A DNA stretch of 64,000 bases from a virus: IMG/VR virus record IMGVR_UViG_3300031857_000025, one strand, 5' to 3'. Positions 1 to 50,517 of this stretch are shown here, piece by piece; positions within the stretch are counted from its first letter, which is position 1; each line of letters opens with the position of its first letter. A program made the position numbers and the translations under genes. The notes beneath the pieces were generated by a model. That model was given only the letters and a program-made list of their open reading frames with translations. It did not search any database and was not told the DNA's origin.

Positions 1-100
1 TACAGACACAAATGTCAACCCAAATACAGAATGAGAATATTAATTCAAGTACAACTGACCCAAATAATTCGGTATTTGAAAGATTAGAATAGGAATAAGA

Positions 101-667
101 ATGTTACCACAATTACATATGCCTCCTAGTCAAATAAAAAAAGCTTATACAGCTGGAGGTGAATATATTATTGCCAATGTAAATGATCGTCGAGAATATG
201 TTGGATATCTACATATATATCCAAACGGTGCTATATATAGTGGTGATAAGTACACATCGGATAGTATAGAATTATTAATGGTGCCGGCACAATACTTTAA
301 CTCCCAGTATAATGGTATATATTTTAAACTTACTAGAGCAGCTTTTTATAATCATACAGATCCGCAACATTACGTTTTAGTACCTACAGCAGATGATCGT
401 AAAAAAGGTGTAGTTAAACGATATTTTGCCTGTAAACGCAATGAAGATATTGTTATTGAAGTTGATTCCAAACAAGTGCAAGCAGCTAATGTATCAAATA
501 AAAAAGGTATTAATGCACGTATTTGGCGTATGATATCATTGGAATGGACAATTGCTGGTAATACAGATGAAGTACAACGAGCGAATAGTAGAGTTGTATC
601 AGTTGCATCACGTAAAGTTCCTTATATACGTACATACTTATCAGACCTTTTAGAATTTTATCAGTAA
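101..667 (+). CDS. hypothetical phage protein
   Basis: 188 aa ORF, no motif recognised. Confidence 0.6.
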   Translation: MLPQLHMPPSQIKKAYTAGGEYIIANVNDRREYVGYLHIYPNGAIYSGDKYTSDSIELLMVPAQYFNSQYNGIYFKLTRAAFYNHTDPQHYVLVPTADDRKKGVVKRYFACKRNEDIVIEVDSKQVQAANVSNKKGINARIWRMISLEWTIAGNTDEVQRANSRVVSVASRKVPYIRTYLSDLLEFYQ

Positions 668-48649: not shown

Positions 48650-49553
48650 TAATTGTGAGAGAGAAAGTTCTTTGAAATATTATTATCCATTCAGTAGTTG
48701 ATTATGAGACCTTCGGGTTGATTATGAGACATTTAATCTGATAAATGATAATCGGCCGCTTATGGTCGTTAAATAAACTGGGAAACCAGGATAAAGTGAA
48801 TCACCTTAGTTGAAGTGGTTTGCGGCTTTAGTAATAGAGCTCAAGTAAGCAAGTAGGATATCATTGGTCCTTTGTACCTGAGGGTAACACTGTAGGGGAA
48901 GTGGATTGATGACTGAGCGATGCAGGTCGTTTGGTTGAGTTCGGAAGAATAATAAGAATAACCTATAGGAATTATGTAAGAAGTATGCTTATCCAAGTAT
49001 ATTATTGCGAGTTCCAATATAAGAGGAATCTTAAAGCTGAAAGGCAAGTCAGTGTACGGGTGGTGCCGTTACTGTACCGGAGACTTATCTACCAAGGTAG
49101 GTTTACGTAGATTTCTTGAAGTATGGAGGTGGGGACACTTCAGAGAGTAGTTAAGTATTGACTCGTTCAAAAGATGAGTTAGCTTGTGATAGGCCACTAC
49201 TTTCCGAATCTGCAACTAAAACCTTTGCATTGATTAGCAAACTAATAAATAACAAAGCAAAAGTGCCTATCAGCTACGGATGAAAGATGCCTACACAGTA
49301 ATGGGTTGTCCATTGCCATTGAAGGTCGCAAGCCTAAGATGATATCTTTGAAAGGTCTATAGCTCCGCAAGAGTTAATTAGCCCGGCAGGGTTGAATAGA
49401 ATGAGTAAGAGGTGAGTAGTCCAAACAAGTAGCTCAAAGAGTGGTGTACTTAAATCACCGGCATTGTTAGGATAGTATCCAAAAGATACTGGACAAGAAG
49501 GGAAAACATAATCCGACAAAAGACCTAACACCGAAGCTGTAGTCTCAGGCTTT
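48650..49553 (+). ncRNA. ~900 nt structured RNA, GOLLD-like
   Basis: no + strand ORF of 60 aa or more, richer in GC than its flanks, many GNRA/UUCG-capped helices, lies between phage tRNAs; family assignment from size, context and recall only. Confidence 0.7.
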
Positions 49554-49651: not shown

Positions 49652-49921
49652 ATGGAAAACAAAAAGTATTCAGTAGTTTATAAAAATGCTGAAACAACAA
49701 GTACCTGGACCTATGATCTTAGTAAGACTCGTAACGGTCCAGTTTCTGTTGAAATAGAGTATCATGATGGATTGGTTGAACGTAAGGTTAAAACTAAAGA
49801 GCCAAAAGTGAAAAAAGCAAAAGTGGTTAAAGCTAAACCAACTCCAGTTAAGAAGAAAAAGATTGTTAAGAAGAAAAGTGTTAAGAAGAAAATAAACACT
49901 AATCTTGGTCGGTTCGTCTAG
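49652..49921 (+). CDS. Lys-rich basic-tail protein
   Basis: KVKKAKVVKAK...KKKKIVKKKSVKKK; the stop codon lies inside tRNA-Glu. Confidence 0.65.
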   Translation: MENKKYSVVYKNAETTSTWTYDLSKTRNGPVSVEIEYHDGLVERKVKTKEPKVKKAKVVKAKPTPVKKKKIVKKKSVKKKINTNLGRFV

Positions 49922-49978
49922 GGGTCAGGACACCAGATTTTCATTCTGGGAACACGGGTTCGATTCCCGTACCGACTA
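49907..49978 (+). tRNA. tRNA-Glu(TTC)
   Basis: GGTCGGT/ACCGACT, CCAGA-TTTTCAT-TCTGG, GGTTCGATTCC. Confidence 0.93.
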
Positions 49979-49981
49979 CAC

Positions 49982-50126
49982 GTGCCACTTGATTGGTGGC
50001 TAGTATGTGTAATACGAAAGAAATGGATTGATCTCCATATGCACTAACGCGGGGTGAGAAGGCTCCTACGATTGTTGACTGGTCGGCCCAAGAATAGGTA
50101 AGAGTCGGTGGTACCTTATCAGTCAA
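49982..50126 (+). ncRNA. unidentified structured RNA (~145 nt)
   Basis: GCCAC/GTGGC, ATGGA/TCCAT, TTGACTGGT/ATCAGTCAA helices. Confidence 0.45.
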
Positions 50127-50130
50127 AAAT

Positions 50131-50228
50131 GCTCAGGTGGCGGAAGCGAGACTATTGCAATGGTTCGATAGAAGACGCTAAGGAAACGAGCCAGCAATGG
50201 CATGAAGGTGCAAGTCCTTCTCTGAGTA
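50131..50228 (+). ncRNA. tRNA-like RNA lacking an anticodon arm
   Basis: acceptor GCTCAGG/TCTGAGT+A, Leu-type D stem, variable arm GCCA-GCAA-TGGC, T arm GAAGG-TGCAAGT-CCTTC. Confidence 0.65.
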
Positions 50229-50229
50229 C

Positions 50230-50435
50230 AATGAGTAAGAGATACTCACCAGTCTTTGAATCAAGACTTTACCAATGATTCCGCAGAATGTCTACGGCGC
50301 GAGTGGGACATCGTGGGAATAAAGGCGGCAATCACACCTCCTCCTACGTAGTGTGACTTTTTTAACGGGGATGCCCTTCAGGTTTCATCAATAGGAAAAA
50401 ACCGAAATGACTACTCACCGGAATCTCAGGTGGGG
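50230..50435 (+). ncRNA. unidentified structured RNA (~205 nt) sharing motifs with the large RNA
   Basis: TGAGTA/TACTCA, AGTCTT/AAGACT, TCACAC/GTGTGA, CTCACC/GGTGGG hairpins. Confidence 0.5.
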
Positions 50436-50440
50436 AATTT

Positions 50441-50517
50441 GCGCTCTTAGCTCAGTTGGTTAGAGCAACTGACTCATAATCAGTAGGTACCTGGTTCGAT
50501 TCCAGGAGGGCGCACCA
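50441..50517 (+). tRNA. tRNA(CAT), probably Ile2 (lysidine type)
   Basis: GCGCTCT/AGGGCGC, ACTGA-CTCATAA-TCAGT, encoded CCA; body resembles Ile2 more than Met. Confidence 0.9.

Follow-up and report, generated by a model that had tools for sequence, protein, structure and literature searches.

A structured small RNA family in phage tRNA arrays and its relation to the neighboring GOLLD RNA

Positions 50230-50437 of the window, that is, of the whole 64,000-nucleotide stretch of phage DNA that we analyzed, very probably encode a non-coding RNA that is self-contained and structured and belongs to a family specific to phages; the RNA would be released by tRNA enzymes and would act via its three-dimensional shape. 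Comparison with its relatives predicts that this RNA (the small RNA, or B) is composed of nine helices, including two H-type pseudoknots, in two domains with a U-rich linker between them. The 5' domain would be made of the hairpin P1 and the two pseudoknots, and the 3' domain of P7, P8 and the terminal hairpin P9, with a base pair between the P7 loop and a junction. An earlier note on this DNA had described a discrete small structured RNA on the + strand at this place, and this description was borne out by the family collected with a covariance model (R1) and by the covariation within that family.

The locus and the family of the small RNA

The source phage is large and uncultivated. Its G+C content is 34%, and every gene lies on the + strand. 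The genes of the window include those for a family-B DNA polymerase, a ribonucleotide reductase, a GroEL-like chaperonin, and a protein with a type IX secretion CHU_C domain. Judging from this T9SS cargo domain, the host of the phage is likely to belong to Bacteroidota. The order of the locus from 5' to 3' is GOLLD, tRNA-Met, a small ORF, tRNA-Glu (49907-49979), a tRNA-like mimic, the small RNA, and tRNA-Met(CAU). Since GOLLD, tRNAs, the mimic and the small RNA stand side by side, the earlier description of a multi-RNA locus was appropriate. The region 49980-50440 has a G+C content of 46-49%, compared with 34% for the genome, and contains no long ORF. The coordinates of the features are shown in Table 1. 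The 5' domain of GOLLD begins near 48650, and tRNA-Met lies 10 nt past the 3' end of GOLLD.

Table 1. Positions of RNA features at the locus and of the predicted helices of the small RNA (window coordinate = B position + 50229)
Feature	Window positions	B positions	Strand	Remarks
GOLLD RNA, conserved 3' domain	49143-49551		+	Rfam RF02032, 279.7 bits; gathering score 150
tRNA-like element	50131-50228		+	T-arm and acceptor 3' strand; adjoins 5' end of small RNA
Whole small RNA (B), ~208 nt	50230-50437		+	Covariance model R1, 198.8 bits, E 3.9e-54
P1 hairpin UGAGUA-AGAGA-UACUCA	50232-50248	3-8 with 14-19	+	Loop 50238-50242
P2	50251-55 with 50264-68	22-26 with 35-39	+	First H-type pseudoknot (50251-50281)
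PK1	P2 loop 50258-62 with 50277-81	29-33 with 48-52	+	5/5 pairs changed on both sides
P3, variable hairpin	50288-93 with 50306-11		+	Both-sided changes; poor alignment here
P4	50313-17 with 50343-47	84-88 with 114-118	+	Pair types GC/CG/UA/AU
P5	50324-28 with 50337-41	95-99 with 108-112	+	Second pseudoknot (50313-50356)
PK2	P5 loop 50332-36 with 50352-56	103-107 with 123-127	+	Cognate/non-cognate comparison
U run / linker	50358-50363	129-134	+	Columns T131-T133 at least 90% conserved
P7 hairpin, pentaloop	50367-50376	138-140 with 145-147	+	138-147 second-highest mutual information
P8	50377-85 with 50399-406	148-156 with 170-177	+	A50380 bulged
P9 terminal hairpin CUCACC-GGAAUCUCA-GGUGGG	50414-50434	185-190 with 200-205	+	Loop 50420-50428, B 191-199
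tRNA-Met(CAU)	50441-50517		+	ARAGORN; Rfam tRNA, 71.5 bits; directly 3' of small RNA

The tRNA-like element has the acceptor GCUCAGG/UCUGAGU and a T-arm loop of UGCAAGU. This module stands alone between tRNAs in two related loci (L005 and L004), and relatives of it, or a look-alike with AGUCAGG/CCUGACU, precede about one third of the members of the small-RNA family. Comparison by blastn with loci that had been fetched via a neighboring protein and the 21-mer AATGAGTAAGAGATACTCACC divided 49980-50440 into independent modules, of which 50126-50229 corresponds to the tRNA-like element and 50230-50437 to the small RNA. The matches of related contigs to this query began only at its position 147, and the preceding part (49980-50125, 146 nt after tRNA-Glu, G+C-rich and ORF-free) had no relatives among the fetched loci in the blastn comparison. 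An ORF for an 89-aa Lys-rich protein (49652-49921), which overlaps the first 15 nt of tRNA-Glu, is conserved in L005, and no Pfam family matched it.

The exact 21-mer was present in 13 IMG/VR contigs. The main set of the family was gathered by a scan with a 15-mer of P1, and nearly all of the matches listed were full-length relatives. By nhmmer, about 105 loci were found among the matches listed; a scan with a 3' pattern added 37 further loci, and a scan with a central pattern added more. The covariance model R1 gave at least 88 matches of 46-199 bits in 87 sources, which were IMG/VR phage contigs. R1 matched the window only once, at 198.8 bits over model positions 1-213, the window sequence being one row of the model's own alignment. 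The small RNA of the window shows all of the features of the family, namely the full-length R1 match, the AGRGR loop of P1, the two pseudoknots, the AAUCUCA loop, and the tRNA or tRNA-like flanks. It is present as one copy per genome.

The search with all 4227 families of Rfam 15 (E up to 10) gave only three chance-level matches to the small RNA (E at least 4), and it matched none of the Rfam models of ROOL, manA, tmRNA, RNase P RNA and the known self-cleaving ribozymes. Neither ARAGORN nor RF00005 called a tRNA inside 50230-50437. Among 50,697 GenBank phages, blastn found no match to 49980-50440, and megablast with 12 kb of the window found only tRNA. In 185,579 prokaryote genomes only two fragments were found, both on short contigs of Bacteroidota MAGs. 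The motifs of the small RNA were not found in the literature that we searched. As judged from these comparisons, the small RNA is a phage family absent from Rfam, which may be included in the 8,495 unnamed IMG/VR candidates of PMC10690425.

Several additional copies differ from the canonical form. One contig (L094) carries a second, divergent copy (L094:2437-2642, 46 bits) located 500 nt beyond its canonical copy, with a different P1, a P9 loop of AUAAGGGGUA, and then a terminator-like hairpin. Another (L256) carries a copy of the 3' domain only (L256:2570-2750), consisting of the U run, P7, P8, and P9 with the loop GUUAUCUUUAA. This copy lies directly after a tRNA-like gene and about 6.8 kb from the full-length copy of the same contig. 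Further copies of this type were obtained as second matches in L271, L272 and L276, and all four begin at the U run that corresponds to 50358-50363. The existence of such copies suggests that the 3' domain folds independently. One family-carrying phage contig also contains a tmRNA (L043:9849-10255; Rfam RF00023, 83.8 bits).

The ends of the small RNA coincide with those of its neighbors. In the matches listed, 44 of 88 copies begin at most 3 nt after a tRNA called by ARAGORN, and most of the remaining copies follow the T-arm and acceptor 3' strand of a tRNA-like element, as in the window. At the other end, 49 of the 88 copies finish 4-10 nt before a tRNA. The unit corresponding to 50230-50437 lies exactly between two tRNAs in L047, L043, L050 and others, and the copy in the window is bounded by the tRNA-like 3' end (50228/9) and by the start of tRNA-Met(CAU) (50441). 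That is, the ends of the RNA are fixed by tRNA ends, and we therefore infer release by RNase Z and RNase P. From this gene context, the small RNA is probably released by tRNA-processing enzymes. It would be transcribed from the + strand within a GOLLD/tRNA polycistron, RNase Z or an equivalent enzyme would cut just past the 3' end of the upstream tRNA-like element, and RNase P, in cleaving at the 5' end of the tRNA-Met that follows, would set the 3' end of the small RNA.

The predicted fold and its support by covariation

For the analysis of covariation we used an alignment made from a hand-built structure and model-based realignment. In this alignment 79% of the cells were paired, compared with approximately 40-49% after the partners were slid by 1-3 columns, and changes on both sides were observed in 45 of 58 pairs. 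The covariation score was 0.297 versus 0.113 in shuffles, and none of 500 shuffles reached the observed value. A plain MAFFT alignment gave the same picture of structural support. RNAalifold on the raw MAFFT alignment returned only 17 pairs, a low yield that is due to the indels in that alignment. The minimum free energy was not distinctive (z = -0.5 for 49980-50440) and was uninformative on both strands. Thus, the evidence for a structure, which stays a predicted one, is the comparison with relatives and not the folding energy. The strand of the small RNA was assigned as + because G-U pairs are frequent.

A separate scan by mutual information gave the top pairs 86-116, 138-147, 96-111, 150-175, 24-37, 30-51 and 31-50, the last three of which lie in P2/PK1. 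The pair 86-116 of P4 had the highest mutual information and was a standard pair in 98% of cases; the P5-region pairs 96-111, 97-110, 95-112 and 94-113 also ranked high. The P1 stem covaries even in the sets gathered without the P1 motif, where we found GGGUA/UACCC, GAACA/UGUUC and AAGUA/UACUU. In the first pseudoknot, at least 5 pairs of PK1 could be formed in 77 of 84 cognate combinations, compared with 25% of non-cognate ones. The corresponding values for the pairing of PK2 were 53 of 84 and 27%. P3 varies in length and sequence and bears large insertions in some members.

In the 3' domain, the P8 pair 150-175 changes from C-G to U-A or A-U. The tertiary pair between U50372 in the P7 loop and A50410 (143-181) also covaries, being Watson-Crick in 90% and changing from U-A to A-U. 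The P9 stem covaries (UUACC/GGUAA, CACU/AGUG) and has at least 5 pairs in 84 of 84 members.

Three candidate pairings were tried and rejected. One was a long-range fold in which the 5' UGAGUA binds the distal UACUCA, and the proximal CUCACC binds the 3' GGUGGG. Its pairs would cross, and the covariation of P9 involves the distal strand alone, as in L073. No supporting variation was found for pairing of AAUAAAG with the U run, nor for that of CUAC in J8/9 with the P8 loop.

Relation to GOLLD and other readings of the small RNA

The earlier note had pointed to several matches between the small RNA and GOLLD, and these matches could be confirmed. AATGAGTAAGAG is identical at 49400 and 50230, its sole two occurrences; GACTACTCACC (50409) is the reverse complement of GGTGAGTAGTC (49411), with one occurrence of each; TACTCACC recurs exactly at 50243 and is also present at 50412; and the terminal loop GGAATCTCA (50420) parallels the last loop of GOLLD, GTAGTCTCA (49539), again with one occurrence of each. 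The note had asked for a shuffle check, for which 2000 dinucleotide-shuffled versions of the small RNA were compared with GOLLD (48650-49551). Identities of at least 12 nt arose in 17 of the 2000 shuffles, complements of at least 11 nt in 63, and the two together in none. Thus, both the 12-nt identity and the 11-nt complementarity to GOLLD exceed chance in this window.

The note had also proposed that the small RNA is a partner of the large RNA, to be checked by covariation between the two across phages. GOLLD was fetched from the 11 carrier contigs that have it, and each GOLLD was compared with its own small RNA. Both the 12-nt identity and the 11-nt complement were absent in all nine of the other cognate pairs. 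In these nine pairs the longest matches were 8-13 nt, were located elsewhere, and were no better than those of mismatched pairs. The note itself had named non-conservation of the matches as the finding that speaks against its proposal; the long matches are unconserved, and as far as they are concerned the proposal therefore fails on its own terms. The only features common to the GOLLD and small-RNA families were GAGUA(A/G) words and the terminal loop. Of these, GAGUA is simply a helix strand, because it varies (GGGUA, GAACA, AAGUA) with compensating changes of UACUC. In P9, the 'complementary' CUCACC serves as the 5' strand and covaries with GGUGGG, and A50410 (A181, within GACUAC) covaries with the small RNA's own P7 loop. 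A 13-nt identity, AACCGATACAACT, was seen in L002 between a variable, disordered GOLLD linker and the small RNA (L002:2798-2810 and L002:3669-3681); its rough chance expectation is about 0.003.

GOLLD was present in 11 of the 42 contigs bearing the small RNA. Such a co-occurrence is probably far above the general frequency of GOLLD in phages, and some functional link between the two RNAs may exist. Among the carrier records at least 90% complete, GOLLD was found in one of four, and it was absent in three judged 93-100% complete. In two records with both RNAs, the genes are 6-12 kb apart. In the closest relative, L005, with a GOLLD that is 88% identical, the small RNA is missing from the slot that separates the tRNA-like element from tRNA-Met. 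This slot is filled by an unrelated G+C-rich hairpin of about 60 nt (L005:2276-2335). It appears from these arrangements that cassettes are swapped between fixed tRNA-like borders and that the small RNA is an optional cassette. Neither obligate co-occurrence nor conserved or covarying intermolecular complementarity with GOLLD was found among these contigs. ROOL was found in none of the 42 carrier contigs, which is weak evidence since the search matched nothing in control genomes either.

The two RNAs resemble each other in several respects. Both are phage-borne, belong to tRNA arrays or adjoin them, and precede a tRNA by a few nt. The final hairpin of each has a loop of ..UA(A/G/U)UCUCA, both have AAGAG-type purine words able to receive that loop, and from their position they would be co-transcribed neighbors in the window. 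The small RNA has an L27-type loop GUAAUCUCA beside a tRNA (GGAAUCUCA at 50420-28, 13 nt before tRNA-Met), and the consensus of the terminal loop in its family is NGUAAUCUCAR. In contrast, the small RNA is 208 nt long versus about 900 nt, its order of helices is different, and it has two small H-type pseudoknots. It gave no covariance match to GOLLD of at least 150 bits (49975-50445) and, at 208 nt, shows neither the size of more than 400-800 nt nor the multi-helix 3' domain and long-range pseudoknot of a GOLLD member. Moreover, each RNA occurs without the other, and cages are known for GOLLD, whereas the small RNA is known from sequence alone.

These results bear on two readings that relate the small RNA to GOLLD. 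The small RNA might be a trans-acting partner of GOLLD in a two-RNA system, binding via GACUACUCACC with GGUGAGUAGUC and sharing AAUGAGUAAGAG. We regard this as very unlikely. The rarity of the window matches in shuffles, the location of the two genes on the same strand only 680 nt apart, the co-occurrence in 11 of 42 contigs, and a complementarity of at least 8 nt around GAGUAG/CUACUC in 3 of 10 pairs (window, L107, L002) would fit such a partnership. However, the long matches are absent in the other nine cognate pairs, which do no better than non-cognate ones; GOLLD is missing from records judged 93-100% complete that have the small RNA; the reverse case is seen in L005, where GOLLD is present and the corresponding slot lacks the small RNA; and the two genes are 6-12 kb apart in two records. 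In addition, each RNA uses the segment in question for its own fold: in the small RNA it contributes to the P9 stem and to the 143-181 pair, and in GOLLD, according to the Rfam alignment, to helix and pseudoknot strands. From these comparisons, the reading of a GOLLD partner seems already largely refuted by the lack of conservation. The other proposal of the note, a minimal paralog of the large RNA, would mean that the 3' end of a GOLLD RNA gave rise to the small RNA, which kept the core fold. This is also improbable in our opinion, even though both RNAs have the same type of terminal hairpin (a stem of 3-6 bp and a loop of ..UAAUCUCA) a few nt before a tRNA, and GAGUAAGAG-like words occur in both. 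Neither covariance model detects the other RNA: the GOLLD model had no match in the small RNA (49975-50445) at E up to 10, and R1 had none in GOLLD. The order of helices and the topology of the pseudoknots differ, GAGUAAGAG is a junction strand in GOLLD and a stem plus loop in the small RNA, and GAGUA itself varies in the unbiased sets. We think that striking matches of 11-12 nt between neighboring RNAs, such as these, can arise by accident within one lineage from short motifs that both RNAs share.

Two further readings were considered. The earlier note had noticed CCTCCTCCT at 50337 within a local hairpin (50332-50356) and a run of TTTTTT after it (50358-50363), both of which are exact, and had suggested a loop of anti-Shine-Dalgarno type able to bind AGGAG leaders. 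According to this idea the RNA would be a regulatory sRNA whose loop CCUCCUCCU sequesters such leaders, with the hairpin 50332-56 and the U run as an intrinsic terminator. Besides the hairpin and the U run themselves, the presence of CUCC or CCUC in this tract in 63 of 84 members agrees with it. But CCUCCUCCU (50337-45) constitutes the 3' strands of P5 and P4, which are the best-covarying helices, and no more than 42 of 84 members contain CCUCC, others having for example GCACUGCCG. The terminator scan called no terminator at 50358-50363, and the structure past the U run continues for about 75 nt, is conserved and covarying, and is linked to the 5' end through a probable contact with the 5' loop. 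In Bacteroidota, the likely host phylum, SD-led initiation is weak, which also counts against such a role. We judge this reading, which seems already contradicted by the covariation, to be extremely unlikely. It is also hardly probable that the small RNA is a passive processing spacer, that is, a structured filler that presents the flanking tRNAs to RNase P and RNase Z or shields them from exonucleases. Its constant position at tight junctions between tRNA or tRNA-like genes and its nature as an optional cassette would suit a spacer; most tRNA junctions in the same arrays, however, are a few nt long and need no such element, and two pseudoknots, a tertiary pair, conserved loops and a single copy in each genome go far beyond the needs of a spacer.

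Loop-loop contact, assembly and role

Returning to the reading of a self-contained structured RNA, we examined the two loops at the opposite ends of the chain. The earlier note had suggested that the terminal loop can pair with the 5' AGAGA loop, and this pairing is probable: the variation of the loops always keeps it. Across 110 distinct members, P1 has the loop A-G-R-G-R, and P9 has the loop core UCUC. The only changes were A-to-G at two positions of the P1 loop that face U and one C-to-U that faces G, the latter being the sole change of the UCUC core in full-length members. The Gs of the P1 loop that face C never change, so that all of the observed loop changes keep a pair. The constancy of P1 is circular in the first and largest set, which was gathered by the P1 15-mer, while the later sets are free of this bias for P1; the selection of the 3'-pattern set, in turn, favors the 3' loop. 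The divergent copy of L094 lacks both loops. The copies with only the 3' domain (L256, L271, L272, L276) lack P1 and have the loop AUCUUU in place of AUCUC. A fully compensatory change on both sides of the loop-loop helix was not seen in the 110 members, and the helix is therefore considered probable, short of proven. Taken together, a loop-loop helix of 4 bp is probable between the A-G-R-G-R loop of P1 and the ..AAUCUCA loop of P9. This helix would either close the molecule on itself or join copies, and the sequence fits both.

The cryo-EM structure of GOLLD env-38 has shown that its L27, the loop of the terminal hairpin P27, is an intramolecular hub tying seven regions together (Kretsch et al. 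2025; PMC12286853). We think that the L27-type terminal loop is a building block that the small RNA shares with GOLLD, whose 3' domain is organized by L27, with no sign that the two RNAs pair. The small RNA may also be compared with other phage RNAs. The tRNA cluster of phage T4 encodes the small RNAs RNAC and RNAD, whose role is unexplained (PMC3014915). These resemble the present RNA in being small RNAs inside a phage tRNA cluster. On the other hand, the present RNA had no blastn similarity to the GenBank phages, a collection that should include T4, and its family is larger, knotted, and known only from uncultivated phages with likely Bacteroidota hosts. ROOL (RF03087) and manA (RF01745) are likewise phage-associated structured RNAs without assigned function, which at least assemble as RNA-only particles (PMC12286853; bioRxiv 10.64898/2026.07.01.735769). 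The small RNA matches neither Rfam model and is known here only as a sequence.

A variant of the preferred explanation, rather than a full alternative to it, is that the small RNA forms an RNA-only assembly, in which the AGRGR loop kisses the UCUC loop of the next copy, head to tail, to give rings or cages that might dock onto GOLLD. The conserved complementary loops at opposite ends of the chain are suited to this, and the cages of GOLLD and ROOL are held by kissing loops, some of them initially interpreted as contacts within one molecule (PMC12286853). Furthermore, manA and similar phage-associated RNAs of less than 200 nt form 60-mers (bioRxiv 10.64898/2026.07.01.735769), and GOLLD is present in 11 of the 42 carrier contigs. 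Against it, the equivalent loop L27 of GOLLD acts within one chain, and the sequence data are silent as to whether the pairing is intra- or intermolecular. We consider such an assembly rather unlikely. It is more doubtful still that the small RNA is a third, miniature self-assembling phage RNA that makes closed RNA-only rings or cages, in which case mixed particles of GOLLD and the small RNA might form where both are encoded, since the loop and the purine words are present in GOLLD as well.

With regard to the role, the small RNA of the preferred reading would most likely be a stable particle that is made during infection and acts by its three-dimensional shape, comparable to RNAC and RNAD of T4. 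It would not work as an antisense RNA against GOLLD or Shine-Dalgarno sequences. Our leading guess is that its target is a protein or RNA of the tRNA-handling machinery, and one idea is that it serves as a counter-defence against host enzymes that target tRNA.

The tRNA islands of phages are known to harbor large RNAs such as GOLLD and ROOL. The present family would add to these a compact RNA of about 208 nt, which is easily synthesized and has well over 100 natural variants. It would provide a small model for what the UAAUCUCA loop does and for whether such RNAs assemble. It may also help to explain the folded non-tRNA RNAs and the anticodon-less tRNA look-alikes that lie between the tRNA genes of large phages, probably those of Bacteroidota.
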